DNA of 64,000 nucleotides from Yuukianura sp. NJ FZ-2021. Taxonomy: Eukaryota. The number at the start of each line of letters is the position of its first letter. The first letter of the stretch is position 1. The DNA is taken from the NCBI GenBank assembly GCA_046563655.1, contig CM102290.1:6572001-6636000 (forward strand), given 5' to 3'. This document shows positions 14,188 to 60,700 of the stretch, piece by piece. Made by a program: the position numbers and the translations under genes. The notes beneath the pieces were generated by a model. It made no database searches. It saw only the letters and a list, made by a program, of their open reading frames with translations, and had not been told where the DNA came from.

Positions 14188-14202
14188 ACAGCAACAAAGA
14201 AA

Positions 14203-16731: not shown

Positions 16732-18278
16732 CTACCAATTTCCATAGTCAGCAGCAATCGTTTCCAACTCCTTCACCAGCAAGTCCTTGGCTTCCATGTT
16801 CTCACCAAACTTAAATGTGAACGACTTTCCCGCCAAAATCTGCCCTCCCCGGGTGCTTGCTGAACTCCCTCTTCCGTTTTCCATCACAACAAGAACCCCC
16901 AAAGCATCAGCTGCAGCCAAAATCCTGTTCCAGCATTCCTTGTCCTGCGAAAAGCTGAACCTTGTTTGCTGACAGACACCGGACAAAGAAATTTCTTGTA
17001 GGGCTGGAAGTCTCGGAACTAGTTCCAAGAACACAACATGGTCAACCCCGCAAGAAAAATCAATGTGACCTCCAAGGCGGTCCAAATGTAGTTTTCTCAA
17101 ATTTGGTAGAGATGCAATCGATCTTACAAGTTCCCCACGTAACACATTTGCGCCGACCAGAGAAAGTTTGTAAATGGACTTCGGATAATTCTGCTGACAC
17201 ACAGTTTTGTGGAACCCTTGAAATCTTCCGTGTCCAAAGAAGAATGGGCTGTGGCTGTGGGGAATAAACTCCAGACGCAATTCCGTCAAATTATTCAGTT
17301 CCTCCAACCCCTCAATCCTATATGGCGACCTCGCGTCCATCACCACGTTACTAACATCCAACTTGCGTAGGCTTTCTTTGCTATTCTTGATTATTACAGC
17401 TAGCCGTTGCATTGAAACTCCGTCTAGTTCCACCTTCAAGCATTCAAAAGCATTTGGCAAGTCCACCAACTTCCACCAAATACTAAAAAACGAGGACGGG
17501 AAAGCGTAGTGCGGAAGACAACTGATCTCCAAAACCCGCAACTTTGGCAACACCACGTTTGCCACAGGGCCGATCTCTCCAAACTCCATATTGCTCCGCG
17601 TACATGTTAGGTTCAAAACTTCCAACTTCTCATGATGCCTTTGGATGAATTCGAAGAAGCTGTGAACTGTGCCCGGCTTGAATTTGTGACACAAATGGAA
17701 CTCGGAAAGTTGTGCTAGTACAAAGTCGGGTTTTGAGCACAAAATTTCAAACAACCCGGGCTGTTGGTGCCTTCCGCCATTTCCGTTGGACAAGCAGGAG
17801 TCAATCTTGAGTATTTTCAAGTTCTGGAAGTGGCTCACCATTTGAGACGGCGTGAATTGGGCACAATTGATCTTTCCAATTGCACCAACGTGAAAAAAGT
17901 TCATCGCAGGAACAAAGTAATACGTCCGAATTGCGTTCCGCAGACCGCTCATTGAACAAGCGCCAGAAAATGTTACCTCCTGGACCAGGCTGCGAAACTT
18001 GATTGCAGGCAGCGCTGCGTCACGGTAGTTTTTCAGAACAAGATGCCTCACTTTCGACTCCTTCACATGCGGCGGGAGCCACTTGTTATAGCACACCAGC
18101 TTCCACAATCCCAACCTAAACCAAAAAAAAATCCTTCAAAAAAAAAGCTCAGAATCGCAACAGGAAGCGCCTTGGGATATGTGACGAACCTGTCAACGCG
18201 TTTTCTCCACTCGCGAGACACAAGCCGCATTTTACTCAGCTCATTATTATTCAAATACGACAGAACAAGGGCCAACAT
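16732..18278 (-). CDS. F-box / leucine-rich-repeat protein, 2 exons, about 490 aa
   Basis: Exon 18278-18190 (VLSYL..EL.KMRLVSREW..VD, F-box) splices through a 74-nt GT-AG intron in frame to 18115-16732, which has repeated LxxLxL motifs (LPKLRVLEI, LNNLTELRL, LPNLRKLHL). Confidence 0.85.
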
Positions 18279-19109
18279 CTAGTTAACAAAAAAATTCATT
18301 CATTTTTTCGTATATATATATCCTTCGCGGCTAAAGATTTTCCTGTTTGGGGAAACGTGAGAATCGCCCCCTTCCCCTCCTCGAAATTTCTCTGAAAAAA
18401 AACTGTCAACTCTTGCATTGCCCCGCATGATGTAACCAGTCTCACCATGCCCCACTTGACGTAAATCCAAAAACACTCGAATTCTCACATAACCCCGTAT
18501 GGTGGAGATTCTAAAACACCCAAATTCTCACATAACCCCGTATGATGTCAATCCTACAAAACCCTACCCAACAGCTCACCTCATTCGGAAGGCTTTCCAA
18601 CTTCGGGTCTTCCATTGCCCCAAATGTGTTATAATTTGTGCTTTTGCTGGTTTTCTAACAAGCGTGAGGTACTGTTACAAATGACAAAACAACTCAATTA
18701 TATACCCCAGCTCAAGGATAAAACAAACGTTTCCTCAACGTCCAAAGTCTAAAAAAATGACGTCACCTGATAACACAGTCTAACAAGATAGCAACGATAG
18801 ACGATGATGGGATGCGTCCAAACTTTGTCTTCTCACCAAAGTACCACCTAACCAGCTACTACGACGTGAAAGTCCAAGGTCATGGGCCACCTACCAAAAC
18901 TCCTGACGTGATTATGCTAGACTTTCACAGTTTGAATTTCGATGATATTCTATTCACATTTCTTAAAAAACAAAGTTTTTCTAACGCATTTTTATAGTAC
19001 AAACAGCAAACCCACAAAAACCGAAAAGTACAACGAAAAAAAAATTCAATTTATTTTTTTGCAAACAAAACAAAAATGTTGTTTTTTTTTTAAATAGTAA
19101 TTCAAGTAT

Positions 19110-20479
19110 TTAAAACCCAACTCGGGTAAGGCGCAATCGCATGTTGCGAGTTTCGCACATTGGACCAGCAGACCCCCCCCGCTTTTTTGGAGGGCGCCCC
19201 CTTGGGCGTTTTGGCGGGACTGGCTCCTCCGCCACTTCCACTTCAGCCACTTCCCGCTTCACGGCAACGTTAGCAAGCTCTTGTTTGAGTCGATTCAACT
19301 CCTCCACAGCTTCCCGTTTTGCCGTTTCAGCCGCAGACGCAACTACTTCGGCCACTTGCTGGTTGTCCTGGGCAATTTTAGTACGCTCACGAAGTTCGCG
19401 CACTTTCTCTTCAGACTCCTCAAGTTTCTTGTGAACAATGTCAAACCTTGCGGCATAAGACACTTGTTCCTCCTTGTGACGAATGTTCGCCATGTGCCAC
19501 CGCGCCTCGGATTCAACGAGTTTTTGGCTCAATTCCGCACAGCGGGATTCTGAGGCTGCTCCCCGCTTGTTCGATTCGTCAATTAATCTTAAGTTGTTCG
19601 CCATGATTTTGTCCCTAAACAAAAATTGAAATTACTAACTACACAGAGAAACACAAACAAAAACTTGACAAAAAAAATTGACAACATTGAAAGATTGTTA
19701 AACCAAAAAAAAACACTTACCACGCCGTAGTACGACAGTTCAGCTCCGTTTCTTTTTTGTTCAGTTCCGCCTGCAAGTTCATAATTGTTTTCGTTTTTTG
19801 ACAACTGCCGAACTCCAACTCCGCAACTCTTTGACCCCTGAAAAAAAAACGAATTAAAAAAATTTAATTTTCACACATAACTTAAAAAAACTACAAAACG
19901 CTTACAATGCGTATTGCACAGGCAAGGCAGCGATCCTGGCCTGCAGATCGATCACCGTGCTTTCGATGATCTGAATGCGATCACTAAAGATTTTTAAAGA
20001 AAAACAAAATTTTGTTTAACATTTTTCAATTAAAACGTAAAAGAAAAATTACCTATCGGAAGTCACCACCAAACCGGACCAGGCCATGCCACATTCCTGC
20101 ATGGACAGAAACAGCCTTCGCCCCTCCACTTTCTCCCCAGTGGTCTTGACCATGGCCTGACACACTGGACATGCCGTCCTCAAAGAAAAAGCACACAGTT
20201 AGCACAAGGTTTAACTTAACATATAAAGTAGTAAAAGTACTTACTCAACTGTGGCCGAATCTCCAAGGCATCCAGGATGGACAGAATTAGCCCAATTCAG
20301 CATGCAAATCCTAAAAACGCAAAGTTTTTAAATCCTGACCAAACACGTAAATCCTAAGAATCTGATACAAATACTTACCAGTGCAACACGTGGTTGCACT
20401 CAGTTGAGATGACGATGGCCTTCACGTCCATCGGCTCATGGTCCCCGAACTTGTCCAAACACACGGGACAAATAACCAT
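19110..20479 (-). CDS. RING-H2 + coiled-coil + AT-hook protein, 6 exons, about 330 aa
   Basis: Exons 20479-20379, 20310-20245, 20178-20053, 19983-19906, 19837-19721 and 19614-19110 give one open frame: CPVC...ECNHVLHWIC...CPVC, long coiled coil, KRPRGRPPKK. Confidence 0.88.
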
Positions 20480-20937
20480 GGTTTTTTCTTCTTTTTTTTT
20501 TACGACAGAGATTGACAGCACAAACTCAACTTACTTTCAAATTAACTTTCAACTTACAACAAACCTCTTTATATCTTACGAACGAGGCGGACTTAAAAAC
20601 CAAAGCATTTAGAAATTGTGCAACTAAACAAAATACTCCATCGGGGTCGAAGGTTGGAATCCTAACGCTCCAAACAATTGTCACAGTGTCACAAGGACAG
20701 AAACTACAAATTTCTGTCCACATCCCAAAAGCATGCCAAGGACGTCCAACACTCAAATTAACATCATGTTTTGTCATGTGAATGACTCAGTTTTCAGATA
20801 TCTGATTTCAACAACAAAATGTCGTCAAGAACTGGCACAGCAAACTTACGATCTGACTTAACTTAAAAACTTAACGATCTTAACTTAACCTTTTCGTGAG
20901 TCACCCCCACAGACCAAAAACGCGCGAACGAATCCAG

Positions 20938-21038
20938 AACGTTTGACCTCAACCTTGCGTTCTTCCTAACTGACTCAACTCCCTCCGCAAAACGAATCCG
21001 GAACGTTTTACGTTCTTCGCGGAACTTACCATTCTACT
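20938..21038 (-). repeat. Right TIR of Maverick 1
   Basis: Reverse complement of 3150-3250; ends ATTCTACT followed by TSD CATGTC. Confidence 0.97.
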
Positions 21039-21154
21039 CATGTCATTCCCACTGACCTACTTCAGATTTCCAGCATAAAGCACGAATCAGCCAGCAGAAC
21101 TGAGATGGAATTTTCCCATCTCGGTTCTACTAGCTAAACTAAGGTTATTACTAA

Positions 21155-24100
21155 AGCCACATCACACTCTTCTGCATATTAACAACGAATTTGTTCCTTT
21201 CACAAACCAGGTAACCAATTCTAATGCTCATTTGACTAATCCGTCTACTTCTGTTCCCACATCCAGTTGTAATCACAACTCCGGCCATGGGGTCCTACTT
21301 GGAACTGCAGAAGTCTACGTAATGGATGCTACTGGAGCCTACCAAACCTGCCGTGTCCTTTTCGATCCAGGAGCTGAGGTTTCCTTTAGCACCGATCGGT
21401 GCTGTCAGCGACTTGGTCTCTCACAGACAAAGTCCAACGTCGCCATCAACGGAGTTGGTGCCACAACAGTTGGTAAAGCAAAGGGAAAAACAATTTTGAA
21501 AATCAAATATATGTGTAATGATTTTACGTTGTCGGTGGAAGCTTTTGTTCTCTCCCAGGTCACAGGTCAACTGCCCTCATTTAGGTGTGGTGACACCTGG
21601 AAAGAATGGACCCACCTTCAGAATCTGACCTTGGCTGACCCCAGATACATTGACCCGAGGGAAGTTGACATTGTACTTGGGGCTGAGGTCACACACCGAA
21701 TTTTCACTGGTCAGACTCTTTCTTCTCGGGTTGATCAACCCGCTGCTTGTTCGAGCCACTTCGGTTGGGTGGTCATGGGACCTGTCCATACTCCACCAGT
21801 GCAGTCTTACACGGCCCACTGCCACACAGTCTCTCTGGATGGAGCCATTCAACGCTTGCGGGAACTCGATCACGTCCCAACTCGGATGCAGTTGACACAA
21901 GAGGAGAGTGACGCAGAGAACCACTTTACAACTCATCACTCTCGTACACAGGATGGAAGATACATTGTTCCACTTCCATTCAAACCCAACATTTCGGAAC
22001 TCGGATCATCACGATCAATTGCATTACGGAGACTCCACCACACTGAACGTCGGCTGGATCGACTCCCGCAACACAAAAGTGAGTACGTAAAATTCATGAA
22101 TGATTATCTCAATTTAGGTCACATGGAACAAGTCCCAGCATCGGAAGAAGGAGAACAATTCAAGATGGATCCATCCAGACGTAGTACCTCCCACATCACT
22201 TCGTTTTGAAGGAGGATAGTACAACAACCAAACTTCGTGTGGTGTTTGATGGTTCGTGTGAATCAAATTCAGGTTTGTCACTTAACAAGTGCCTAATGGT
22301 AGAACCAACTATTCAACCTGATTTATTTACACATCTAATCAAATTCCGATTGGATCCAATCGTTTTAAAGGCTGACATAACAAAAATGTATCGCCAGTTC
22401 TCAGTTTTAGAGTCAGACTCCAACTTCCAGCGGATCCTTTGGCGGCCAACTCCTGATCAGCCTATTCGGGAGTACAGGCTAAAAACAATCACTTATGGAA
22501 CCTCCTCGGCTCCATTCGGTGCCATTCTGGCCCTCAACCAACTTGCTCTGGACGAAGGAAATTACTTTCCCTTGGCCAGGCAAGCAATAATTGAGCGTTT
22601 TTATGTAGATGACTTTTTAGGTGGTGACTCATCAGTTCCAAAAGTGGTGGAAACTTACCACCAATTCACCAAACTACTCGCTCGTGGACAACTGTCAATA
22701 ACTAAGTGGACTTCAAACTCTCCGGAAGTCCTGCAGGAGATTCCTTCACACCTAGTGGAAATCTCCACTCAATCACTGGCGGAGGGATCAAGCACAAAGG
22801 CATTGGGCGTTCAGTGGACTCCAAATTCTTATCTTCTCCATTTCACTGGATTTAGGTTTAACCAAACCTCGGTAATAACAAAACGTACCATTTTAAGTGA
22901 CATCGCAAAGTTATTTGATCCACTGGCGCTACTCGCTCCATTCGTCGTGTCGGTAAAAGTTTTCTTCCAGAGTCTGTGGACCTTGGGAATTGGTTGGGAT
23001 GATAACCTGCCCGAGGACTTGGTAGAAAGGTGGTCCCACCTTGGCTCATCATTGTCATGTCTTAGTGACATTGCCATTCCATTACACCAAATTACCAACG
23101 AATGGAATTACATGGGTTTTCGGATGCCTCCGAAAGAGCCTATTGTGCCGTGGTCTACCTCAGGACATTTGATAACGATCTACCAATATCACGAATTCTC
23201 ACTTCCAAGACTAAAGTAGCTCCTGTCATAGCACAGAGCATTCCTAGGCTAGAACTTTGTGGTGCTTTGTTATTATCAAAACTAATTTCTTTCCTTTTGT
23301 CTAGTTTGGATCCAAACTGTCATGTCTACTGTTGGACTGACAATGAAATTACTTTGCGTTGGATCTCGTCTTCTTCTCGTCGCTGGGTCCCATTCGTGGC
23401 CAATTGGGTTTCGCAAATCCAAGAGCCCACACCAGTCGAATCTTGGCATTTCATTCCTGGGACACTCAACCCTGCCGATTGCGGAACAAGAGGGATCCCT
23501 CTTAATGAGCTTGTCGACAATCAGCTCTGGTGGAACGGACCGGAGTTTCTTTCACAACCACAATTACCTTCGTTCTCCAGTTCACAATCACTCTCATCTG
23601 AGCATCTGAAGGAAGAACGTAAGGTCAAGGTCCTAACTATTCAAGTGTCTTTTCCCATATTGAACAGGTATTCGTCATTTTTGCAACTCCTACGTGTCAT
23701 CGGGTCACTTCTCGGGTTTGTGCTGAGAGCTCAGCAGAAGTCGGCACCGACGTCACGCTCAGTCGAGTTCTACCGAATGGCCACTCGGAAGGTCATTCAA
23801 CTGTCACAACAGGAACACTTCCAAGAGGAGATCCAGTCTCTGACTGAAAACGGTAAAGTAAAACAATCCAGTTCGTTGCTCTCTCTTTCCCTATTTTTGG
23901 ATTCGGATGGATCTCTTCGTGTCGGTGGACGGCTCCACCTGGCATCGCTCCCAGAAGCTGCCAAACACCCTCTGATCATTCACGGAAAGTCTTCAGTCAC
24001 TAAACTACTTGTCCAGCATTACCACCACAAGCATCATCATGCTGGGAATCGTCTTCTGCTCTCACTTCTACGCCAAGATTATTGGATTGTCCACGCACGA

Positions 24101-25123
24101 GATTTGATCAAATCTGTCATCTCTCGCTGCCTCAGATGTAAGCTGTTGAGACAAAAGACGGCAACACAACTCATGGGTACACTGCCTCAACCAAGAGTCA
24201 CGATGTCACCTACGTTTCATCACACTGGTTTGGACTACGCTGGTCCATTTACACTCCAATCTGTCAAAGGACGAGGCCAAAAACAATTCAAGGGCTACTT
24301 CTGCATCTTCATCTGTCTCTCTACGGAAGCCGTTCACGTGGAGTTCGGAACCGAACTGTCGACCGAATCCTTCCTCGGCAGTTTCAAACAGTTTGTATCA
24401 CGTCGGGGTAACCCACTACATTTGTATTCTGATTGTGGTGCAAATTTTGTAGGTGCTAATAACGAGTTGATGGATTTGGTGAGCTCTCACCAGTTCAACT
24501 CGGAAGTTTCTTCTTACTTTGCAGAATCACAGACACATTGGCATTTCAATCCTCCGTCTGCTCCTCATCATGGTGGAATCTGGGAGGCAGCAGTACGTTC
24601 TGTCAAATTTCATTTGAAGAGGATCATTGGGACCACCACTTCAACGCTTGAGGAATTTGCAACAGTTCTTTGCCAAGCGGAGGCAGCGCTGAACTCCCGA
24701 CCTCTTCTACCGATGTCCAGTGACACGTCCGATTTAGGTGTGATCACACCGGGCCACTTCCTCGTCGGCAGACCTCTCCTCGCCGCTCTTCAACCAGATC
24801 ATGCTGATGTCAAGGTCAATCGCCTCTCACGTTGGCTGTTGCAGGAGAAGCTATTCCAAACGTTCTGGAAGGTCTGGTCACTCGAATACCTCACATCCCT
24901 TCAACAACGAGTAAAGTGGACCAAGAAAACCAACAACTTGACAATCGGAGATCTCGTGGCCATCAAAGATGACAATTTACCCCCTCTAAAGTGGAAACTG
25001 GCTCGCGTCATCAACGTTCATCCTGGTCCAGACGGACTAGTCAGAGTCGTCACTCTTCGTACGGCCCTCGGAGAACTCCAACGCCCTGTAGCGTCTCGGA
25101 CCGCTACTATCCCCAAAATATGA
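21155..25123 (+). mobile_element. Degenerate BEL/Pao LTR retrotransposon pol region (end of gag, protease, RT, RNase H, integrase), 5'-truncated and frameshifted
   Basis: HHTLLH (end of gag knuckle), LFDPGAEVSF, TTKLRVVFDGS, YVDD, LHGFSDAS, IPRLELCGA, DYAGP, SDCGANF, GGIWEAAV. Split into three ORFs by frameshifts near 22200 and 23090. Confidence 0.93.
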
Positions 25124-38408: not shown

Positions 38409-38466
38409 GTGAGAACATTCTTACTTGCGAAGTTCTCCAATTTCAATGGACTTTTTTCAAAGTGTC

Positions 38467-38543
38467 AGTAGTAGCCTAGAAGGGACTTTCACGCCAAATC
38501 GACCTTTGGACCCATAAGGTTTAAAACCACTGGCGTGAGATCC
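38467..38543 (+). repeat. Left TIR of element 2
   Basis: Reverse complement of 48850-48926 with one mismatch. Confidence 0.97.
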
Positions 38544-39041
38544 AAGTAGGACAAATCCTGAAGGACAAATTAAGGACAAATTAGTTAAGACTAATTGACG
38601 CTTCCTGTCACCGAGTTAATTAGCACTTCCTGTTGGCTTTAACCTACACAAAATCCCTTAATTGGTAATTTCCGATCTCGGACTTAATTTTTGGTGTTAA
38701 GCCACAATTTTCGAAATCCCGCCAAAAATTTTGTACATAAACCTTCGAGCCAAATTTCAAAAAAAAAAAAAAAAAAAATTAGTGAATATTAATTAATTAA
38801 ACACTTCATGTTGGCAAGATGCTTCCTAATGCCCTGACAGCCTTGTTCTAGTTTTACCTTTAACACCATCGACTCAAATCAACCTTTGCCCCCAATGTGT
38901 GTACAGGATGAGTTAACTCACAACTTTACAACATTGTTCACAACATCTAACAAAGAACCAATAACACAAAAAGAAAGGACTAGTCACAAAATTGTTCTAA
39001 TCATTTTTTATTTCAAATTTTTATTAACATTTGTAAATCCA

Positions 39042-39740
39042 TTATACAGGAGTATTTTTGGTTAGCACACCATGAAATATGATGCTGTCAATTACATCAG
39101 CACTGTACGGCTTCATTCGAAGTTCCTCATGCGTAGAATACATGCTACGTGTAGAACTCTCCATAACAAAGGTTCTTCGACGGATCTGAAATTGTTGGTG
39201 CTTTGTCAAATCCAGCAAATGGGTGGTATACAGTTCTCGAATGTGTTGATTTGTTTGTGGACAGCAGCAATTAGGACGATCGAAAACACTTCCATGGTTT
39301 TCTTTATTTCGACACTTATTCAAAGCCAATTCGCGTAGATCCTTCAAGTAGCTTCGCTTTGCTTCATGGATAACTCTATCCAAAGATTCGTCCAAATACG
39401 AAGTTGGAAATGATTTTAGAAGTCTCCCAACCAAATGCGGAATTTGATCCAATTTTATATAAGCAGCGCCACACGCTCGAATTAGGAATACTTGATCATC
39501 TTGTCTTATGAAATGAATATCCGCTTCTCCGAATTTCTGAATTGAATCTACCTGACTCGCCTTCTTACGATTTTGAGCCAGAATTTTTTCAAAATACGGT
39601 AGGCCAGCCATCATTTTTCCCGCCCCAATGTATACAACGACTAACTTCTCAACCACCGTCGTCAGTTCCTTCTCAGCAAAAGTAATGGAAAAAGATGAAT
39701 TTCTGACTTCAATACCGGATGAGGACGAAAGTACTTCCAT
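39042..39740 (-). CDS. Orphan protein A (232 aa, C...NCCC motif), paralog of 40119-42698
   Basis: Intact ORF sharing ELxTVVExLV, LPxFxKxLxQNR, IHFI, LDxIPxLV, FPxxYLxESLDxxIHExKRxY, NCCC and LDxTKHQQ with the split paralog. Confidence 0.85.
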   Translation of the reverse strand: MEVLSSSSGIEVRNSSFSITFAEKELTTVVEKLVVVYIGAGKMMAGLPYFEKILAQNRKKASQVDSIQKFGEADIHFIRQDDQVFLIRACGAAYIKLDQIPHLVGRLLKSFPTSYLDESLDRVIHEAKRSYLKDLRELALNKCRNKENHGSVFDRPNCCCPQTNQHIRELYTTHLLDLTKHQQFQIRRRTFVMESSTRSMYSTHEELRMKPYSADVIDSIIFHGVLTKNTPV

Positions 39741-40267
39741 GTTGAACTAATTTAAACTGATCGTCTAAAACAGCCGTTCAGAGTTCCTTCTTCTCAGGAC
39801 TAGACGAGACTAAGTAAAACCAGTTAAGACTTCCAGTTAAGCACTAATTGGGACTAATTGATTTTCTTTTTTGTCCGTTAGCACTGGGTGGAGCTACCCC
39901 CGACAAATCCTTGGGATTGCCTCTTGTACAAAAACGTTTTTGTACAAATACCCTTTTAATGAACATGTGATTAGAGGGAATTTAATGCCATCCACATTCA
40001 GCGCAGCACCCAGTGGTACCTATACAGTTCAGACATCATCAGTTTTACTATTGTCCTAAATTTGTTACTATTGTCCTAAAGTTTACAGTTGCTTTTACAT
40101 ATTTGCAGCATACCAAGGATGGACGTAAACCTGCCGGAAGTCTATCTAAGCAAGGGTCTTATTGCCGTCAAGAATTCTGGAAATTCAATTATGTTTTTAT
40201 CCGAGGAGCTACAAACCGTTGTAGAAGAACTAGTCAAAGCATATATTGAAGAAGGGAGGATGATTAA

Positions 40268-42164
40268 CTCCCTACCTCACCATACTTCCAGACTGCATTC
40301 CGGCGAAAACAAACTGACAGTTGTCACCCAGAACGATTTCGGCAAAAACGTCCATATTTTTTAAATTAAAATATTAAAAAAAAAAAAAAATTTTTTTGAA
40401 AATTTTTACTCCGACGTCATTTCATGTCGCAAGTGAAAATTCACGTCGCGAATTTTCGCGTCGCGCGAGGCGACGCGAATTTTCACAGAAAATGCAAATT
40501 TGATGCTCAGTCGCTACTACGGCGACACCCACAGCGATGGGACGCAATTTCCCGTCGCGCGTGAAATTTCACGTCGCGAATGGCGACATCCGCGAATTTT
40601 CGCGTCGCGCGAGGCGACGCGAATTTTCACAGAAAAAACAAATTTGATGCTCAGTCGCTACTACGGCGACACCCACAGCGATGGGACGCGATTTCCGGTC
40701 GCGCGTGAAATTTCACGTCGCGAATGGCGACATCCGCGAATTTTCGCGTCGCGCGAGGCGACGCGAATTTTCACAGAAAATGCAAATTTGATGCTCAGTT
40801 GCACTACGGCGACACTCACAGCGATGGGACGCGATTTCCGGTCGCGCGTGAAATTTCACGTCGCGAATAGCGACATCTGCGAAATAGGTCAAAAACTAAA
40901 AACCGATGTCGGCAGGTGTTATGCGTGACAACGGAATTGTCCTAAGCCGTTTCCAGACTCACGCGAAATTTCACGTCGCGTACGCCGCGAGTCGTGAATT
41001 TTCGCGTCGCGCCTGGCGACGCGAATTTGGTAGAAAATTGCCCATTTGTTACTCAGCTGTACTCACGGCGACACCAACAAGGATGCGACGCCATTTTCGG
41101 TCGCACGTGAAATTTACGTCGTTGTACGTCGCGAACGGTGATATCAGCGTTTTTTACGAAAATGCGCATTTGATGCTAGACACGTTCAGAGCGTACCTGT
41201 GGTATTGTGAAGCCATGCTTCACTGACGCGAATTTTTGCGTCGCGGATGGCTACGCGAATTTTCCCTTTCGCGACGCAAAATTTCGCGTACGACCGGAAA
41301 TGGCGTCGCATTTCTGTTGGTGTCGCCTTCAGTACAGCTGAGTAACAAAAAGGCAATTTTCTGTAAAAATTCGCGTGTCGCCAGGCGCGACGCGAAAATT
41401 CACGACTCGCGGCGTACGCGACGTGAAATTTCGCGTACGACTGGAAACGGCTTAGGATCAATTCCGTTGCCACGCATAACACCTGCCGACATCGGTTTTT
41501 AGTTTTTGACCTATTTCGCAGATGTCGCTATTCGCGACGTGAAATTTCACGCGCGACCGGAAATCGCGTCCCATCGCTGTGAATGTCGCCGTAGTGCAAC
41601 TGAGCATCAAATTTGCATTTTCTGTGAAAATTCGCGTCGCCTCGCCCGACGCGAAAATTCGCGGATGTCGCCTTTCGCGACGTGAAATTTCACGTGCGAC
41701 CGAATATGGCGTCATCCTATAGTTGTCGTGCGCATAAAATCTGTTCGTCGATTTGCCTTTTAGCACATGGCCAAGGGTGGCGCAATTCGCGACGTGGAAT
41801 TTTCACGTTCAATACGTTTGTGCAAAAAATTCAAAATCGTTTGAAAAACGTAATTTAGGGTGTTTTCATCATTTTCCAATTTTTGAAAAAAATTGGTTCA
41901 GAATTTCAAAAATTTTATACCGCTGTAAGAATTGAGTTTCTTTGTCAGAAAAGCTCAAATCCAGCCCAAAAACAGCAATTTTCACTTCAAGAAATCCCGA
42001 AAAATTGAAATTTGTCGAAAAAAATCAAAAAACGTTTGAAAAACGTAATTTAGGGTGTTTTCGTGAAATTTCAATTTTTTGAAAAAAATTGGTTCAGAAT
42101 TTCAAAAATTGTATGTAGGGAGAAAATCGTGGGTGATAATTGTCATCATGATTGGCAGTGTTGT
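40268..42164 (+). mobile_element. Non-coding insertion with Helentron/Helitron2-like ends and a large internal palindrome
   Basis: CTCCCTAC at 40268 with its inverse GTAGGGAG at 42115-42122, hairpin 42125-42153, ATTAA at both junctions; internal 144-bp repeats and about 420-bp inverted arms. Confidence 0.55.
40434..41701. repeat. CpG-rich 144-bp tandem units arranged as a long inverted repeat
   Basis: Unit marker TGATGCTCAG at 40501, 40645 and 40789; about 40696-41115 is the reverse complement of about 41279-41701. Confidence 0.92.
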
Positions 42165-42765
42165 ATTAAGCATCTTCCACATTTTGGGAAGCTGTTATTG
42201 CAGAACCGTAATAATGCAGCAAAGCAAAATGAATACTCGCCGGATGAACCACTACTCCCGATTCATTTTATCAAGGACGCATCAGCTCGTGTCATCCTTA
42301 TCCGAAGCGGCGCGCCTGTTATGATCGATTTGGACCATATTCCCCAGCTGGTTGAGTCACTTCTAAAATGTGGATGTTTTCCTATTACATATTTGGAGGA
42401 ATCTTTGGACATGCTGATTCATGAAACTAAACGCGGCTACATCGAGAAACTCCGCAATGAGGCGTTCCGATCCTGTCACAACAAATTGGAAATTGATCCT
42501 TGCAGGAGCATTTTTGGCGAGTTCAACTGTTGCTGCACAGCAACTAATACATCAAACTACAGTCAACATGTATTGGACGTTACTAAACACCAGCAAATGG
42601 AAATTAACAGATGGAAATGGGGAATAGATAGTTTCTATGGTAAGAGAGAACTTGCTGTACTTGAGAGTATTCGACTAAGAAATATTCCACTGACTTAATC
42701 TGGAAAATTACATTTCATGGCAAAAGAGATTGCTAAACGGTCTTTATTCAAGTCAAATAAAATTA

Positions 42766-43530
42766 TCAATTATTTCTGTACACAGTACATCCAACATCGG
42801 GAAATATATTATTGCGGATTCTAAACCTATCATCCTGGGATTGGTGTAGGTCGATAAATACATGACCATACTGTTTTTTCATAACGTCGTCATAGCATGT
42901 TTCCAAAGCTTCGTTCCGTTTTCCGTTTTTTGTTAGCTGACGTCCAAAGCAGAGAACTTGAGAGACTTCTCGAGGATTTTTGGTGAAACAAACATACTGG
43001 CAATTTGTAGTTATCGTTCGTTGTCCTTTCTCGAAGAAGCTTTGGGTAACGAAAATTATGCTCACATTCCTGTGATGACTCGTTCGAGTAAATGCAGAGA
43101 CGATATCCTTACTAGCACAAACTTCATGCATAAGATCGTCAAGTACGACGATTCGATGAGTGTTGTAGGGGCTCGCAAAATCGTCTGGTAATCCGTAGTG
43201 AAATTTAATTGTTGGGATGTGACTTTTCAGATCCTGAAAAAATTCAATCTCTGGCTCCCCATAACAATACAGGATATCATTAATCGGAACATCCACCATT
43301 TCAAAACGTCGAAGGAGTAATTCCTTAAGAACCGTCGACTTTCCACTTTGGCTTGCTCCGCTAATTGTCATGCAGAATGGCGCCTTTAGCCTATAATCAA
43401 AACACTCATCACGTTCCGCCATGGTACGATGTTCCGCTGTAGTTTCATCGGTTTGCTTATGTGCAGTGTATACATGGCGTTTAAGGTTATCCGAACGTGT
43501 GAACGTACTGTTGCAAACACTACAATCCAT
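42766..43530 (-). CDS. Maverick-type packaging ATPase with an N-terminal C2H2 zinc finger (254 aa)
   Basis: CSVCNSTFTRSDNLKRHVYTAH, then GASQSGKS, VVLDD, SHHRNVSIIFVTQ and KNPRE; clearly homologous to 8896-9555. Confidence 0.92.
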   Translation of the reverse strand: MDCSVCNSTFTRSDNLKRHVYTAHKQTDETTAEHRTMAERDECFDYRLKAPFCMTISGASQSGKSTVLKELLLRRFEMVDVPINDILYCYGEPEIEFFQDLKSHIPTIKFHYGLPDDFASPYNTHRIVVLDDLMHEVCASKDIVSAFTRTSHHRNVSIIFVTQSFFEKGQRTITTNCQYVCFTKNPREVSQVLCFGRQLTKNGKRNEALETCYDDVMKKQYGHVFIDLHQSQDDRFRIRNNIFPDVGCTVYRNN

Positions 43531-43558
43531 GCTGTTGTGAATACTGAAACACAAATGC

Positions 43559-43760
43559 TTTATATACACCACCACCACCAGTCTTGCTAGGAGGAGGAGG
43601 AGGAGGAGGAGGAGGAGGAGGAGTAGGAGGAGGAGGAGGAGGAGGAGGAGGAGGAGGAGGAGGAGGAGGAGAGGAGGAGAGGAGGAGGAGGAGGAGGAGG
43701 TACCACCACCACCACCACCACCACTATAAAACTGTTGCAATCGGATAAAAATGTTCAGTT
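43559..43760. promoter_or_regulatory. Bidirectional promoter: two outward-facing TATA boxes bracketing (CAC)n-(GAG)n-(CAC)n arrays
   Basis: TATATAAA on minus (43566-43559); TATAAAA on plus (43725-43731) with TCAGTT initiator about 30 nt downstream; GAG tract 43589-43700; CAC tracts 43567-43580 and 43702-43724. Confidence 0.7.
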
Positions 43761-43773
43761 GCATTTGTACATC

Positions 43774-44223
43774 ATGCCTGTTTACTGTGACATTTGTTCC
43801 AAGTCATTTTCCCGCGCAGACGCATTAAATCGACATAATCGCGTTGCTCATTCAGACGAAGCTATGGATTCAGACTCAGAAACGGAAACTGAAGCAGAAA
43901 CGGAAACTGAAGAAGAAGAAGAAGAAGATGACTCTAAGTCACATTGTGGCATGAGTAAATCCAGCTTATCGTTAATCCTTCATGCACTACAAAATGCGGA
44001 TATTGGAGTTCAACGGCTGACTTTGGACAGCTTACGCAAGCTTGTGGAAGGCGCAGACGATTCTGATTCTGATTCAGATGATGATGATGATGATGAATCA
44101 TCCGACAAGTTGGATTCAAGTCAATTAGATTATTTAATAGCCGTTGTAAAAGCCGGAATAAGAAATGTTATCAATATTAACACAGCAGAATTTTTAAAAA
44201 TGCTGAATAAAATGATTTTATAA
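43774..44223 (+). CDS. C2H2 zinc finger + duplicated acidic/helical module protein (149 aa)
   Basis: CDICSKSFSRADALNRHNRVAH followed by two D/E/S tracts, each preceding a similar amphipathic helical segment. Confidence 0.85.
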   Translation: MPVYCDICSKSFSRADALNRHNRVAHSDEAMDSDSETETEAETETEEEEEEDDSKSHCGMSKSSLSLILHALQNADIGVQRLTLDSLRKLVEGADDSDSDSDDDDDDESSDKLDSSQLDYLIAVVKAGIRNVININTAEFLKMLNKMIL

Positions 44224-44290: not shown

Positions 44291-47200
44291 TTATTGAGAA
44301 ATATCTCTATGTCCAAATGCTAAAGTGTTAATTCTATCAACACCATATCGTTTGGTATCTAAACCGTTCAGAGCCCTTTTTAACGTTACTTCTGTGAAAA
44401 TTCTATGTTCCACACTTCTAAATCCTCTCATCCATACACGAGTTTGAACATCTTCCTTGAGGACTTTCTCAAAATCTTCATATGCTATTTGGTTGTTGAC
44501 AGCTGTTTTAGTTATTCCTTTGACTTTCTTCGTGCATTCGTCTTTGATGAACCAGCTGCCGTCAGTCTTCTTTTGGTAAATATTTTTCCCATCAAATCCT
44601 TTGCAGACTTGAAGTTTCAAGGATCTAATGGTGTACATTTTTGGACGAGGACAAACGACGTGAGTGACTACCGAACCGGCAGCTTCATCTTTGAATTTTC
44701 CCAAAACTTTCTTGTTGGTGGGGTCGTGAAACTCTCCAAAGATGGGGTGATCGGGTTCATATTCGCTCATGTCATACAAGTCCTTGTCATGGAGCATGTC
44801 TTGGTATACATCGTCAGTTTGGATGTGATAGATGAAGGAATCTGAAATAAAAAGTTAGCTTTAGTTTAAAGTTAAATTATTGAATAGTATAACATTTACC
44901 TGTGTCAGTATAAATAAGGCGACACTTCTCGACGCCGTATTTCGCCTGTATAGTGTAGTGATGTCGATACATGATGCTCTTTGCCAGTTCAAGCACTGTT
45001 ACCCCCGTAAATATCGGTTTGTTCAAAGTAACTTGAAGTCTCTTCATCATAAAGATGCATGTTGACTCGTTAATTGGGATGACATTCTGGACGGTGGGTT
45101 TCTTGTTGTAACGTAGAGCTTCTTCCATTGATGTAACGATACGAACATTCTGACGCTTGCGTACTTGCTCAATGGTTTTACCAAACGCAGAGTTGTTGAG
45201 GAGTTTCCAATAATCCTTTTCAAAGTCTGACTTTGCCTTTTTTCTCATTTCGGTGTTAAAGTCGATAAAGTCCTTCATCCATGGTCTCTGCTTGAAGGAA
45301 ATTCCGCGGTGAAGTTTTGTAACTTTAACTCCAAGCTTCAGGTACTCCATCAAAATGGCGTGATGTAGAATATAGTTTTTCTTATTGTTTAGATCTGCCA
45401 CAAGTTTCTTAACTTTGAAAATTCCAGGACCTGTGTCGAGTTTTTCCGTCAATTGTATTTGGTGACTGGACAGCTCGCTCTGTGCAACTGTACGGTTAAC
45501 TGGAGCTGGAGGAAAATCATTCAGCTTGTCATGCAATAAAGGGTCAATTTCCAAATCGACTTCAACCATGTATCCTTTTTCATCGTTCATGATAAAATGG
45601 TTTTCTTGAAGTTTCATCAACTCCTCTTCTGTTAGCCAGCGAAATTGTCCAGTTGGAAGCGGAAGACTCATGCTTTTGCCCTAGTGAAAAACGTTAGATA
45701 ATAATTTTTCATGGACGTTGGATACCAAAATGTTGAATACTCACATATAAGTTATTGGCATCGATGTAGAGGAGGTAACTGGATTCCTTTTCTGGATTGT
45801 ATTCATCTCCCATGTACTTGTTGTTTGCTCTTGCCTCTCGCATTGATCCGACGCTAACGTATCCACCTATAAATAAAATGAATCAGAAAATGTCTTCCAA
45901 TTGGTTAAGTTTATAGGTTTTACCTCTAATAGCATGCTCCAGCCAGCAATGCATGGTTGGATCCGTGATTAGCTCCAATTCGACTCCTGATTTCTTGAGA
46001 ACGCAGTCCATCGCCATTATAGGTAACGAGAAATAATGGGCCAGGTCCAATTCGTAAGCATCAAACATTATTTTTCGGATTCCTTCCATCACATCAGCCA
46101 GAAGCGATACATCTAGCCTGACGTACAAGTCATGCCAATCTCCCATGTCTTGAATGTTGAAGCTTTTCCAGACTTTCTGAGCGTGTTGATAAGCGGCATT
46201 ATCAATGTGTGATTCCGCCAAGTCATTGTAGAAATCTTCTTTTGGTGGTAGATTTTTGATTTTGAAATCCTTGCAAGACTTCATGAGGGAATAAGGGTAA
46301 ACACCCTTTTCGAAGAGAAGTTCAATGTCATCGTGTTGTGCAAACTCTTGTCTTGTGATTGGAAATTTTGCATTGGGATCAGCTCGCATCACTTTGACAA
46401 GTTTGTCTAATGATTTCAATGTAAATCCAAGACTGTCTGTAAACCTCAGCTTGAAGGGTTTCTTCTGCCAGCGAGGTGGTTCTTCGTCCTCATCGAAATC
46501 ATCGTGGTACGCAGGAACAATGCTCAGCGACATGTATTTTTCACTGCTCTTAGGGATAACAGTGATGTCCTTGATGATTCCGTCTTGTCTGAGCTTTCCA
46601 GCCGATTGCACAATGAAGTGAACATCATATGATGAGAAGTTATGCATAAAGACGGGAAACTCCTATTTGATTTGCGCTTGGAGGTTACAGTCTTGGTGAG
46701 CCATCCCGATGTAGTTGAACGGTGGAAGATGTGAATGGTGTCGTACTTTAGTTCCATCCAATGGCTTCTTGCAGAAACAACAATGTTTTTCAATGGCAGC
46801 AGCACTTCTTTGCGTTGGAGTCAGATTTAACATGTCTGGAGCAATTTTTTCGTAGTACCGAACTTCCTCTTCCAGTGTTTTGGAGTACTCAGTTATGCTC
46901 TGAATGAATTTGGCGGCAACGTCTTCATCATCGTTGGTGATATGATAATATTCACCATGTCGTCGTTTTCCATTGAAGTCCACGCAAACCCATGCATATC
47001 CACACGGCTTGTGTAGGTGAGTGCAACACTTATTTACAGGTTGAACTGGTCTTCCACGTATCTCTTCTTTGAGTTGTCGGCGCTCTTCCTCTTCTATAGT
47101 TGATGGATTAAACTTTGGGAGGAATGCTTCAAAGTCTGCGTAGAACCGAAATGGAACTGGCTGAGTTCTGGCCCAGTTGTTGAAAGTCAATTTGTTGTCA

Positions 47201-48555
47201 GTAGGATACACAACTTTTTGAAGATCTAAGGAAGCGCAATACTGGATGTGGTCCTGAAGAGTGTGAGCTGATTGAAAATTGGAGAGGCAGTTGCGACAAA
47301 TATGCTTCACTTTGTGATCATTCGGGGCTCTCATTAAAGCTTCAAGGTTTCGAATCAGGATGAAGTGTGCGTTGTTTCCTTGCATTAGACACATCAAGTC
47401 GACATGTATGTCTTTCGACTGTTGAGAATTGTACAGTAATGAAATCTTGCTTTGTATAAAATTGAATGATTCAATTTTGCTCAGCTTCTGTAAAATCATG
47501 TCATCACCATCCATGTCATAACCAAGAACGGTTATAGAAATGTTCGGGTTGAGTTCTTCAAAGTGAGGGATCTGCTCCAAAGTCATCGGAAAATGGAGTC
47601 CTTTAGTGTTCAACTTGTATTCATGTGGCTGGTATGTTTTCACTAGCTTGTCAATACGGCACCTATGATTGTTTCCACCAGCTGGAATGCCACCGATTTT
47701 GTCATGAGCGAGCACTGACCAGATGAAGCATTTGTTGTGGGAATCGTCCATTGACACTTTGCTGTTGTTGATGTTAAGAAGAACTTTTTGAGTCGATAGT
47801 GGGTATGGGGTATCCATGTATGTACCAATCTTGGTGAATTGATACTTTGAAGTGACAAATCCAAATTTCAAAATGGAATCCAGAGTCCAGCCGCTTCCTT
47901 CATTTGTGAAGTCTTCAATTTGATCTGACATTTGGTTGCACATGATTGACCAAACTTTAGGTAGCATGTTTGCATTGAAGACAAGGTGTCGATATGATGT
48001 GAATCCAGCATCTTTTGATTCAACTGTTCCATCTGCGTGTGTCTTTATGAAGTGACACCCCAAGGTAAAAAATATCCTTAGGTTCTTCCATCTGGAGATG
48101 TCTTCTTGGATGACTTCATATGATGATTGCTTCACATTTGCGAAAAAATCTCTCTCGTCGACACCTTCACCGCATTGAAATGCATCATGTTCTGCCAAAT
48201 ACTTCCGACTCATTTTCAGAGATTCCAACACTAGTTTTACAGTTATTAGATCTGTTGACACTCCTCCGCCATCTTGAATGTTGAAGTCTGGGTGAGTTGT
48301 GTAGAAATGTTCTTGAAGTTTATTCCGGCAATTAAATGAAAGTCCACAAGTATAGCAAAACAAATGGCGATATTCTTGTAGAATACTCTCGTTTGTGACA
48401 TCGTAACCTGGTGGAGCTGGTTCAAGACAGTTTTTATGGACTGTGTCAAAATGTAGTTTTAATAATGGTCGAGAGGTAAATCCATGAGCGCACAGTATGC
48501 AGTTAAAGAGTTTCTTGGATGGACCAACAATTGATGTTCCTTGGCGCTTCGACAT
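44291..48555 (-). CDS. polB: Protein-primed family B DNA polymerase, 4 exons, about 1361 codons, one in-frame TAG (46665-46663)
   Basis: Exons 48555-45924, 45866-45745, 45680-44900 and 44841-44291 splice in frame, restoring IRGG, YIDANNLYG and YTDTDS. Also YADFE, HNFSSYD, KLLNNSAFGK and two N-terminal C2H2 fingers. Confidence 0.94.
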
Positions 48556-48849: not shown

Positions 48850-48926
48850 GGATCTCACGCCAGTGGTTTTAAACCTTATGGGTCCAAAGGTCGATTTGGC
48901 GTGAAAGTCCCCTCTAGGCTACTACT
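48850..48926 (-). repeat. Right TIR of element 2
   Basis: Ends CTACTACT followed by TSD GTGTC. Confidence 0.97.
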
Positions 48927-49394
48927 GTGTCTCGTTTTGGAGTTACCGATTAACCGAAAAACTATCAAGAGACTACGAGTTTATTGGCACGTATCCGTTC
49001 CAGTATGCTGTGCGTAAAAAGGACCGGCAGTCCAAAAATCCAAGATACACTATGAGAAGGTTTGTCCCGATTTTTTGTTTCTGAAATATCTTCGGTATAT
49101 CAAAACATATTCGACATTTTTTTACTTTTTGTTGCAGAAAAGTCTTCATTCAAACAAGACGAGACGATGTTAGTGATGACTCTGCCAATACTTACATTAT
49201 GACCATGCCTACCTATGCTGGAGAACACACCAGAGTAAACAAACTTTTTAAAAACGATTTAGTTGAGTAATTAATTGATTTAGTGTTTGATTATCGTCCT
49301 TGTAGGATTATACTCGGACATACCGCTCATGTCGTCATGTCCTGTACCGATCATCCTGGCAAATTTTTCAAAATGTGAATTTTTTAAACTTACC

Positions 49395-55170: not shown

Positions 55171-55885
55171 ATAAAGAAAAATGGAACTGACTCCACTTAT
55201 TTCTTGAACTTTGACCTCTGCTACACTTCTTCTGTTGACAAAGTTGTCTGCTATTGCTATGGCCAGTTTTACTTGGAGCTCTTTTCGCTGAAATCCGGGC
55301 AGAACGTTTTGCCTCCCGTCTGCATCAATCACAACGTTGAATTCAAAAAAGTTAAGAGGATTATCTGTCGGAGCGGTGGTAGCAGCTCTCCATCCGCCTC
55401 GTTTGACCTTGACCTCTGGGTCATAGACGCCTCCTGGGTTATCTATATTTTCAAGGTCACTGACCTCTCCGAAGTCATCGCCCTCTGGTTCTAGCAGGTT
55501 CAGGAACTCAATTTCAGTGAAAACTTCTACTCGCAGGGTAAGAGCAATCTTGAGTAGAATGCATTGCAGTTGCGCAATACTCACGTGATCAATTGAACCC
55601 GGACAGAACTTTGGACAAAGTCGCTTGACCCCAAAGTCACGCATGTCACTCAAAACAAACGGCCAAAGGTGAAGCACGTTCTTACGTGTAAATGCTGATC
55701 GTTCTTCAATGATAACGACGCGTGCGTCCAACAGTTGTCCTTCGATTGCGGAGCGCAAGCCGCATGGTCCGGCGCCAATGACGAGTACATTGGAGTCTGC
55801 GCGGCCGCGACTGTAAGGTTTGGAGTTGTGCCGACGGTCGAACTTGGCAAAAAGTTCTCGGAGGTCAGCCGAGTTCAAAGTCCCC
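55168..55885 (-). pseudogene. Mical: MICAL flavoprotein monooxygenase domain fragment (3'-truncated)
   Basis: VLVIGAGPCGLRSAIE...FTRKNVLHLWPF...KFCPGSIDHVSIAQLQCILLKIAL...KLAIAIADNFVNRRS.AE..VQEISGV. Confidence 0.88.
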
Positions 55886-57136: not shown

Positions 57137-57781
57137 TCACTTTTTTCCCCAGTTTCGCTTGGGAACTTTTTGCCACATTCCATATTGTGGCTTGGGTCTG
57201 ACTCCTGAGAGACTGCGGAGGAATTGCTCTGGAATTGGTGTTCTAGCGGTCGGTTCAAACCGGAAGTTGAGCACCGCCGCGGCGATTGCTACTTTTTCCT
57301 CGACCAATGCAAAGTGACTGACAGTACATGCGCGTTGACCAATCCCGAACGGGAGGTAGTGAGCTGGATGGCGATTGGCTCTTTCTTCGGCGGAAAATCG
57401 TTCCGGAATGAATCGGTTTGGCTCGGCATAGATGTCCGGATCATAGTGGATTGGCATCACAGGAATTATAATTCCGGTTCCCTTGACAATATTTAAGTCG
57501 GTTTTGGGCAGATTGTAGTCCATGGTACACCTTCTGGTTAACCGAAATGCTGGCGGGTACTTTCTCAAAGTTTCTGTAAAAAATATAATAATATATAATA
57601 TAATATAATATATAAAATCAAAGGTTACCTGACACCACCATATCCACATACGGTAGAGATGATAAGGTTTCATAATTCGGAGATTTTGCAACTCCGATTT
57701 CTGTCCAGCAGAATCCAACTCTTCAAATAATTTTTGCTGAACTTCAGGATTAACTGCCAGTTCGTACAAACAGAAATCCAG
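57137..57781 (-). pseudogene. Cytochrome P450 C-terminal fragment (CYP3-clan-like)
   Basis: YELAVNPEVQQKL, ETLRKYPP, PERF and heme motif FGIGQRAC; frameshift before the intron and no N-terminal half. Confidence 0.85.
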
Positions 57782-60700
57782 TAAAGCTTTGATACAACGA
57801 TTGTAATAGTTGGTTTAAAGACAGATTGCGTTTTGTTATATGAAGTCTCGATTTCTTCGCCTTGCTGAACCGTGACATGGGTCAAAAACTGTCCAATAGG
57901 AGATGCCAGTTCGTTCATAACCACTTCTTTTCTAATCCTGATTTTATCGTCATGCTGTTCATTCTCACAATTTGCACACTTGAAACAAATGAAAGCAATA
58001 ACAATTGTTATTCCGAACAACACGCCTTCCATTCTTAGTTTCAAAAAAGTTGATCTTGACTTCAACGTAGTTGAAAAAGGAATGGTAATTTTACCTGGAC
58101 TGGAGTTTATGATGTTTAAATGAATCAAAATGAGATGAAACGCTAGTGAACACAAACAAGCTCTATTCGTATTTTTGATAAAAATAGCTTAATCTCCTGC
58201 TTAGTCCTGCTCCTGACTCATTTCCGGGAAGGACCAAATTACTAGAACGTTTTTGAGAACTATGACTGTTGAAAAGTTTAATGGCTATTGTTGTTGTGAT
58301 GTGAAAGTAAAATGACACTTTTAGGGAAAAAATGTTCATCATTTTTCATTTAGTATTTTTCCTGTCTTTTAAAACAGCGCGCACATAATCCCGGCTTTTC
58401 GCAAATCTTCGTCGTTCAAGATGGTTTCCTCATCTTCCGCCTCAAGTTCTCCATTTAAAAAAAAACATGAAAATCTGAAAAAAATTCCCTCAATTCTTAC
58501 AATTAGTGTTTACTTCGCGCTCATTATCAAGCACATCGCAACTCCTTTCCGTCGTTTCGTAAAGCAACTCAATGAGGTTGTTCATGAAAATTCTTGTTTT
58601 ACATACATAAAACAAGAATTTTCATAGTTCCAATTCTGCAAAACAAAAATGTTATCAGTATCATAATCATTATGCTTTCATATTTCAAATTTCATAGCAT
58701 GGAATTGTGAAAACTTCATGATAGAAGAGAAATTTTTCTCCATTTCGCATTTTCAAAAGTGGCCATTTCCTGCGATGATTTTGAAAGTCAAGAAGTCTTG
58801 GCCTCTGCGTCTTTATCCTCTTAAATGCTGGACTAAAGTGGCTTTATTTGTAAGTGGATTGACATAGGTGACCCCGACTTCCGGACCTTACTGTAAAATA
58901 ATGTTTAGATTACGTACGATTTAGACTAACTTTAGCTTCATTTTGAAGATGAAGATGAGGGTTCAGGAACTCTCAAATAGGATTATGAGCTCAAAGTACG
59001 AAGTGTAGATGGACTAGATGTAGTTGCAGAGTGTAGATGGAGTTGATTTACTTAAGCAAATTAATCAAATAATTTCGCAGTAAAATTCTCAATTTCAAAA
59101 ATTTTATTTTAAATTCCATTTGAATACCTATGTTTTGAACAGAAACCATTTTTTTAAAGTTAGTTTCTTCTATTATTTTGTAGACATTTTGCCCATCAAA
59201 ACGTAAAATATTTTATGGGATGATGTATTGCCTAACTTTGTGCTTTTCAACCAGGAACTAATAATTGAAAATTGAAACAGCAAATTAGAATTTGATAAAT
59301 TTCATTTTCAAAATTTTACTGGATTGCCAAACCGGATACACATTTCCGATTTCCCTGCAAAATCTGGAGCTGACAATTTGATAGCCACCAATTTGATTTT
59401 CTTTTCCATGTTGTTGATCCATTTGGATGCTTGATCTTGCGGGTCAATGAGCAGAGGCCAACGTCAAGCATTGCTATGTCAACTGTTGCAAAAGACACTT
59501 TTAAAACTGGTGGTAATTAAATCAACTCGGCCAAGCCTGAATGATGTGTCTTCTTTACCTTTTGAAGTTGTCCATTGACTCCACATTATCCTGTAATCAC
59601 TTTAGCACAACTTCCTTGTCCTGGCTACCAGCAGCGGGTGGGGACAATGAAGCAGCGCGAAAATTTTAACGGGGGGGGGGGGGTGACAGGCGCGGCGCCA
59701 AAGTTTACTTCAACCGTTTGTGTAGAATTTGAACACGAGAAGATCACCGAATTTCGGGAAGTCAACATGAAATACGACAAAGAGAGTGTATTCAAATGTG
59801 CAAATTCTTCGTGACGCTTATTGAAGACAAGGGTCCGATGATCGTAGAACAATTGTTTCACCAAGTCCCAAGTCGGAGTTCAATTTGATGCTGGAGCTTT
59901 CGAAGGGATTTTCAAAAATCCGAATGAGTAAGAAATGAAATTTCGAAAACTCAAAATGTCAAACATTTTCACAATGTTTTCTTGATTATTTATAGCCTGG
60001 GAGTTTTACTTAAAATCCAGCCACAGTGCTTTCAGGTGATGATACTTATACCTTTTGACTTACTTTTATAATACTTATGCTGATTATGCTCTTATACCCC
60101 TGGAAACTCATTAATTCAATTTCAATTCCAGGTTCAGCACTCGAATCTGGTCACTTTATCAGCGACTTACTCAACGGAACTGGACATTCTGCATCGCCAA
60201 TGTGACAACGGACCGAAATTTAGAGTCCAGCCGGAAATGTCCAATACTTCCACGCCTGTTTCCGTATTATCAGGTCTCCGTCCTTTACTATAATTGCGCC
60301 AAACAATTTAGACCCGAACTTTTGGTTTGAGAGAAATACATCACAAACTCACACCTCTGTCAATTTTGCACCCATTCTTCTCGTCTCAACTCAGAAGTGA
60401 AGAATGAAATACTCAAAACAATAGCAAAACAACTTTCGTTTCCTTTTCGACAAATTCCTTGTTATCATTGTCAGACACTTCCGAAGTATTAAGATGGTTG
60501 CCAGCTTTCGCCAAAGTAATTATTATAGATTAATTATTCAGATTTTACCAATTACAACCGTCCCCATTCTCCTGTAGATTCTTCAGGTATTTATGGGGGT
60601 TCGGGATATACCTATCTTCGGGTATACTGATATATATGGTATACCGAGAAAGTAAAGAAAATCTCTCCCGCCAAAAATTCAAAACAATAACAGAAATAAC

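Follow-up and report, generated by a model that had tools for sequence, protein, structure and literature searches.

Are three short segments that interrupt a viral-type DNA polymerase gene genuine spliceosomal introns, and did they travel with the mobile element to which the gene belongs? The question arises from a 64,000-nt stretch of Yuukianura sp. NJ FZ-2021 (contig CM102290.1 of assembly GCA_046563655.1, positions 6,572,001 to 6,636,000; hereafter the window), which holds an element referred to here as element 2 and its neighbour, Maverick 1. Element 2 is 10.5 kb long, is bounded by terminal inverted repeats and contains a gene for a protein-primed B-family polymerase (pPolB), in which the segments lie. 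Judged from the sequence, it is quite probable that they are U2-type (GT-AG) spliceosomal introns in the pPolB gene of a Maverick/Polinton-type (adintovirus-like) element that has integrated into a genome of arthropod type.

A preliminary description of this DNA had reported three GT-AG segments of 57, 64 and 58 nt in the gene, and all are present on the minus strand at precisely the coordinates claimed (Table 1). Read along the minus strand, with slashes marking the junctions, intron 1 appears as ...ATT AGA G/GTAAAACC...TTTATTTATAG/GT GGA, where the rejoined codon G/GT encodes Gly; intron 2 as ...TTA TAT/GTGAGTAT...TTTTTCACTAG/GGC AAA; and intron 3 as ...GAC ACA G/GTAAATGT...TTTTATTTCAG/AT TCC, where the rejoined codon G/AT encodes Asp. 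The exons sum to 2632 + 122 + 781 + 551 = 4086 nt, that is 1361 codons and a stop, and in an open reading frame (ORF) reading each of the four pieces is open in its own frame, exon 1 apart from an in-frame TAG discussed below. Removal of the three segments restores the frame and gives residue-for-residue colinearity with 10 database homologs and with the polymerase of Maverick 1, whose homologous region is, as had also been stated, free of introns.

Table 1. Window coordinates of features of element 2, its polymerase gene and Maverick 1
Feature	Position	Strand	Remarks
pPolB gene of element 2	44291..48555	-	ATG 48555-48553, stop 44293-44291; 4265 nt
pPolB exons (n = 4)	48555-45924, 45866-45745, 45680-44900, 44841-44291	-	
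Intron 1	45923-45867	-	57 nt, phase 1, splits I-R-G/G
Intron 2	45744-45681	-	64 nt, phase 0, between Y and G of ..DANNLY/G.. (motif A)
Intron 3	44899-44842	-	58 nt, phase 1, in second Asp codon of Y-T-D-T/D-S (motif C)
In-frame TAG, exon 1	46665-46663	-	codon 631, between zinc-finger/HNH-like stretch and ..FMHNFSSYD.. exonuclease motif
Left terminal inverted repeat, element 2	38466-38543	+	78 nt, 99% complementary to right one
Right terminal inverted repeat, element 2	48850-48927	-	78 nt, 99% alike to left one
Target-site duplication GTGTC	38462-38466 and 48927-48931		5 bp, both sides of element 2
Packaging-ATPase-like ORF, element 2	42766..43803	-	uninterrupted; C2H2 finger, low-complexity N-terminus
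Polymerase ORF, Maverick 1	4911-8837	+	1308 aa, uninterrupted and intronless; in-window comparator
BIR+RING (IAP-like) ORF, Maverick 1	3633-4328		
ATPase, Maverick 1	8887-9555		
rve integrase, Maverick 1	10072-11079		Pfam
Adenovirus-type protease, Maverick 1	15537-16070		

The boundaries are also marked by homology. When the intronless Maverick 1 ORF was aligned by tblastn, a 19-residue gap fell precisely at intron 1 and the matches were interrupted at introns 2 and 3; the same 19-residue gap was seen at intron 1 with P0005, an intronless homologous protein (homologous proteins and polymerase loci are cited below by P and L numbers). For the 10 database homologs the alignments break at 45745/45680 and 44901/44845, at the same nucleotides in all. 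At intron 2 a single GT..AG pair keeps the frame open, and at intron 3 two pairs do, of which homology selects the one tabulated. The GC content of introns 1, 2 and 3 is 0.25, 0.31 and 0.19, compared to 0.39-0.43 for the exons. With respect to the consensus branch-point and pyrimidine-tract motifs, intron 1 contains CTGAT with the branch A 16 nt from its 3' end, introns 2 and 3 both contain CTAAC with the branch A 13 nt from the 3' end, and each of the three has a pyrimidine-rich tract near the 3' end. A scan of the whole gene (4265 nt) for GT..AG segments of 45-80 nt with a GC content of at most 0.31, a pyrimidine tract and a CTRAY motif passed only four segments, every one at the three sites and two of them using the same acceptor; the scan criteria were chosen after the introns had been seen, so the result speaks for uniqueness within the gene and not for an independent probability. 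In their ends, frame restoration, branch motif, pyrimidine tract and distinct composition all three segments have the characteristics of spliceosomal U2-type GT-AG introns, and they are very probably real.

Two other origins bear on the same evidence. The segments could be products of decay, that is, small insertions in a dead gene that start with GT and end with AG by accident; the gene is already broken by the TAG, and PMC8097293 holds the 'introns' of the genewise type in degraded vertebrate Mavericks to be insertions. However, three out of three have frame-restoring ends, an AT-rich body, a pyrimidine tract and a well-placed branch motif, a combination found nowhere else in the gene, the 1361 codons contain no further frameshift or indel, and the same sites are interrupted in independent relatives (see below), all of which makes accidental insertion very improbable. 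Still less probable is an origin from introners or some other short mobile family inserted into the element. Introners are reported in dinoflagellate Maverick-like proviruses (PMC11957031), and the recurrence of sites across lineages could mean target preference. However, the three introns show no similarity to one another or to the rest of the 64-kb window, where the best outside matches are 8-14 nt and at chance level, no flanking duplications are visible at the junctions, and lengths of 57-64 nt are below those typical of mobile families. The many similar copies and insertion footprints that characterize introners and other mobile introns are not found within the 64-kb window.

The interrupted gene encodes a polymerase of the kind expected for a Maverick/Polinton. 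The protein matches Pfam PF03175 (DNA_pol_B_2; E = 5.5e-8, covering 45883-46662), has 1384 homologs at E ≤ 1e-3 in one database search and 9850 in a second, and shows an identity of 29-37% with the Maverick 1 polymerase and of at most 49-56% with database homologs; the Pfam match, the homologs and the aligned motifs together mark it as a protein-primed B-family enzyme. Intron 1 has a length that is a multiple of three, yet contains an in-frame TGA, and introns 2 and 3 each shift the reading frame if retained, so an unspliced message cannot yield the full-length polymerase. The predicted dependence of the polymerase on splicing follows from the sequence. We propose that the polymerase message would be transcribed in the host nucleus and spliced by the host spliceosome before full-length translation, and that, since the element replicates as DNA, the introns would be inherited by its copies.

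The claim that an active polymerase depends on host splicing nevertheless has to be divided: the dependence stands, given the TGA and the frame shifts, whereas activity does not in the element 2 copy, given the TAG at codon 631. This position aligns gaplessly to residues of Maverick 1, P0003, P0005, P0007 and P0010, and because the homologs are colinear straight across it, the TAG is a premature stop and not part of a fourth intron. Placement of the TAG within an intron was also rejected because the sole surrounding GT..AG pair spans 26 nt and would remove conserved residues. Barring assembly error or readthrough, even a spliced message of this copy would be expected to end after 630 residues.

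The ends of element 2 conform to those of Maverick/Polinton elements, namely inverted repeats flanked by a target duplication of 5-6 bp, and its AGTAG.. termini are the same as those of Maverick 1 (3150-21038; 6-bp duplication CATGTC). Because the inverted ends are 99% alike and the target duplication is clean, element 2 appears to have inserted recently, by the usual Maverick route. Its ATPase ORF matches Pfam Pox_A32 (E = 3.2e-5) and zf-C2H2, and aligns in one frame with the Maverick 1 ATPase at 39% identity. Given the premature TAG and the detection of polymerase and ATPase genes only, the most likely status of the copy is that of a cut-down derivative which inserted recently and is non-autonomous or dying.

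To place the three sites in a wider context, 268 homologous proteins were compared against P0005 as the intronless reference. Most run straight through (242 at site 1, 240 at site 2 and 227 at site 3), with 22, 6 and 36 proteins, respectively, not covering the site. At site 3 the 227 run-through homologs continue motif C, and ..TDT followed by D was scored in 141 rows of the tree described below. Four proteins that are 38-53% identical to exon 3 (P0003, P0277, P0287 and P0358) instead read ..TDT, G and then a stop within 1-24 residues. The residue after TDT-G is K in P0003 and P0277 and M in P0358, while P0287 has none; a G followed by K or M is what G/GTAAR or G/GTATG would encode. The unspliced frame of element 2 behaves alike, reading ..TDTGKCYTIQ and then a stop. 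P0277, P0287 and P0358 each consist of one ORF the size of an exon with these sites as its limits, which agrees with the earlier expectation that ORF-based searches would miss such elements: intron-bearing polymerases are split by them. P0291 was considered as a fifth end at site 3 and rejected, its sequence being merely cut short.

At site 1, GGYVSVG is directly preceded by the ORF start MFL.. in P0242, the closest relative, and by the ORF start MLNPFFLLFL.. in P0510, its cluster mate, as would be expected of a translated pyrimidine tract. Three other ORF starts at this site are uninformative, as they begin at an upstream conserved Met. At site 2, 16 ORFs start at a conserved Met three residues past NLYG and 6 end near NLYG. 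Among the best 150 exon-3 matches, 14 ORF starts fall in the 20-residue bin with the site-2 junction, compared to at most 8 in any other bin, and the ORFs starting at this site sit on contigs longer than the ORFs themselves. The end of P0027 right after NLYG was rejected as evidence of an intron because P0528, a 90% cluster mate, runs straight through, and the end of P0040 at NLYG looks the same. Some ORF ends at NLYG are plain nonsense mutations, as in the case of P0027, and part of the site-2 signal may reflect decay upstream of the conserved Met. Another exon-sized polymerase ORF starting at the motif A site, P0292, belongs to a EukProt record for a protist, Lithocolla globosa, where it is labelled a complete ORF on a 9-kb assembled node; either the family reaches past animals or the record is contaminated.

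At the DNA level, 87 polymerase loci were screened for breaks between matches and then for stop-bearing inserts of at least 10 residues; the former screen misses in-frame introns that are bridged by tblastn, and the latter finds them. GT-AG interruptions were seen in five loci, of which L001 and L022 were verified by computation and L066, L068 and L069 by eye only; the other 82 were unflagged by either screen. In L001, which contains P0517 (of the P0244 cluster), the Gly codon after NLY is split by a GT..AG segment of 81 nt that carries three in-frame stops. This segment lies 1 nt from the position of intron 2 and explains why the P0517 ORF begins at site 2. Among the metagenome loci, L022 has four GT..AG interruptions at other positions of the gene (1782-2943), and L066 (2430-3662), L068 (1532-1678) and L069 (~5660-5712) have one or two each, likewise at other positions. 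In each of the last three an interruption lies near residue ~776-785 of P0005, possibly a further recurrent site. Neither screen flagged a GT..AG candidate or a stop-bearing insert in the 7 viral_contigs loci of the alignment scan. The DNA of P0003 has no match in viral_contigs, and the contigs of P0002, P0003 and P0242 are absent from the results of the single metagenome scan. Introns in the related loci fall in poorly conserved stretches too. The placement in the most conserved motifs is thus real for the element 2 copy, and, given the intron positions in the related loci, there is no sign that it serves a function.

A tree of 155 exon-3-equivalent segments was constructed with FastTree; its support is weak, with 33 of 152 branches starred. 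The five carriers of site 3 require four changes on this tree, and the element 2 copy groups with P0003, as it does in 14 of 300 label shuffles. The 16 putative carriers of site 2 require 16 changes, which is no better than shuffled labels. A starred group of 26 rows that includes the element 2 polymerase is a mosaic of intron content: the element 2 copy has sites 1, 2 and 3, P0242 has site 1 but not site 2, P0003 has only site 3, P0244/L001 has an intron offset from site 2 by one base, and P0243, P0005 and P0007 have no introns. Either gain and loss at a high rate or recurrent gain at preferred codons would fit the mosaic. The putative intron sites are not confined to one lineage, and their distribution is patchy. 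The suggestion of a lineage-specific intron gain is consequently borne out in that most homologs run through, but not in that each site is interrupted in diverged relatives, patchily.

This scatter would also be expected if the introns had been gained at the locus after insertion, through host-side gain or intronisation in a domesticated or resident gene, and had never been mobile; element 2, in which neither integrase nor capsid is detectable, may indeed be immobile. However, recent insertion, as indicated by the 99% alike ends and clean duplication, leaves little time for three gains, which are unlikely to have occurred since then. Site 3 is common to the element 2 copy and its nearest tree neighbour P0003, site 1 is carried by P0242/P0510, and the premature TAG argues against a host-maintained gene. 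We consider a post-insertion origin quite unlikely. Given the young inverted ends and the sites shared with P0003 and with P0242/P0510, we infer that the introns predate the insertion of element 2 at its locus. We also presume that they are actually spliced.

Several observations weigh against introns that are expressed and carried by the element. The evidence for shared sites is indirect in the main, consisting mostly of the start and end points of database ORFs, and the P0027 case is one in which such an end involved no intron. With its in-frame TAG, the element 2 copy may never yield a useful product. Neither Pfam nor similarity to the Maverick 1 ORFs revealed an integrase, capsid or protease homolog in element 2. 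For the integrase, there was no rve match in Pfam for 3 of the 13 ORFs of at least 70 aa in 38466-42760 or for the ATPase and C2H2 ORFs, the 10 shorter ORFs being unscanned, and a tblastn of the Maverick 1 integrase against element 2 gave no match; for capsid and protease, no profile or fold search was made. When the neighbouring host genes were modelled on arthropod homologs, only one exon each of a P450 and a MICAL gene was found in the 64-kb window. These two minus-strand exons (57152-57793 and 55177-55884, respectively) have arthropod proteins as their best matches, with 39-53% identity, and the nearest named relatives of the polymerase are Folsomia candida proteins (34%) and the PolB of an Orchesella springtail adintovirus (33%).

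Spliceosomal introns in the pPolB gene of a Maverick-type element can be compared to several known systems. In the Drosophila P element, the enzyme of a DNA transposon needs host splicing of the third intron, and regulated, germline-only splicing has been shown experimentally. Element 2 resembles it in that the enzyme would be producible only after host splicing, and the P element is the model behind the idea of tissue-specific control. In contrast to the P element, element 2 has no sequence feature suggesting regulation; regulated or tissue-specific splicing of its polymerase would be a guess by analogy. Adenoviruses, nuclear DNA viruses related to Mavericks, likewise produce a protein-primed polymerase from spliced host-type transcripts, the E2B messages. 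There, a short leader from upstream is spliced onto a polymerase ORF that is otherwise uninterrupted, whereas in element 2 the catalytic core is cut three times.

Element 2 shares with Maverick/Polinton elements and adintoviruses the protein-primed B-family polymerase, its motif order, the packaging ATPase, inverted ends and a 5-6 bp target duplication, and differs from them in having three introns in its polymerase and no detectable integrase, capsid or protease. Mavericks are described as having intronless core genes: PMC8097293 states this for the genes of intact vertebrate Mavericks, and a preprint by Widen et al. (10.1101/2022.07.12.499685) for the core genes of nematode Mavericks, whose cargo genes bear introns. 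The introns of the nematode cargo genes and the dinoflagellate introners (PMC11957031) are also spliceosomal introns carried and copied in Maverick-type DNA. They either belong to cargo genes of host origin or are introners, which are mobile and repeated, unlike the unique short introns of element 2, which lie within catalytic motifs of the element's own polymerase. The literature searched, which did not include the two founding papers (Kapitonov & Jurka 2006 and Pritham et al. 2007, either of which may comment on introns), gave no description of spliceosomal introns in the core polymerase gene of Mavericks or adintoviruses of animals.

These findings bear on surveys of Mavericks, Polintons and other integrated DNA viruses, in which prokaryotic ORF finders are the usual means of calling genes. 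In Bellas et al. 2023 (PMC10120064), the use of a prokaryotic gene caller is justified on the grounds that endogenous viruses 'do not contain introns', an assumption that fails for part of the family, namely element 2 and at least 5 of the 87 loci. Prokaryotic ORF finders split such polymerases into exon-sized 'proteins', and sound elements can be scored as degraded. Introns in a replication gene also imply expression by the host nucleus and spliceosome, unlike in relatives that replicate in giant-virus factories. If it is true that the same catalytic-motif codons have been cut in separate lineages, they would constitute a small natural data set on parallel intron gain or loss, in a DNA element without a reverse-transcription step. 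Tentatively, and with more doubt than belief, we hypothesize that there is an arthropod-associated Maverick/adintovirus-like subfamily with introns in its own polymerase, within a mobile and possibly infectious genome; that IRG/G, NLY/G and TDT/D are hit repeatedly across lineages as hot spots of parallel gain; and that splicing ties the polymerase to nuclear, host-type expression and could restrict it.

Other features of the window were noted. Maverick 1 looks complete, with inverted ends of 101 nt that are 99% alike, and a Pao/BEL-type retroelement (21079-25123, with Peptidase_A17, an integrase zinc finger and DUF5641) adjoins its right end. In both polymerases an Endonuclease VII/HNH-like zinc-finger stretch separates the first exonuclease motif from the second (residues 530-583 of the 4911-8837 ORF, and ~46680-46830 in element 2); the Maverick 1 stretch matches Pfam PF02945, and many database homologs have the same domain precomputed. 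The lone MICAL monooxygenase exon and the lone terminal P450 exon may be gene fragments in a transposon-rich region. Inside element 2, positions 40447-41713 hold a dense nest of inverted repeats of 68-255 nt that are 74-97% alike, with no recognisable gene. At 43520-43800, where the ATPase N-terminus overlaps a divergent ORF with C2H2 fingers (43627-44223), long runs of single codons encode poly-Leu, poly-Ser, poly-Gly, poly-Pro or poly-Glu, whichever frame is read.

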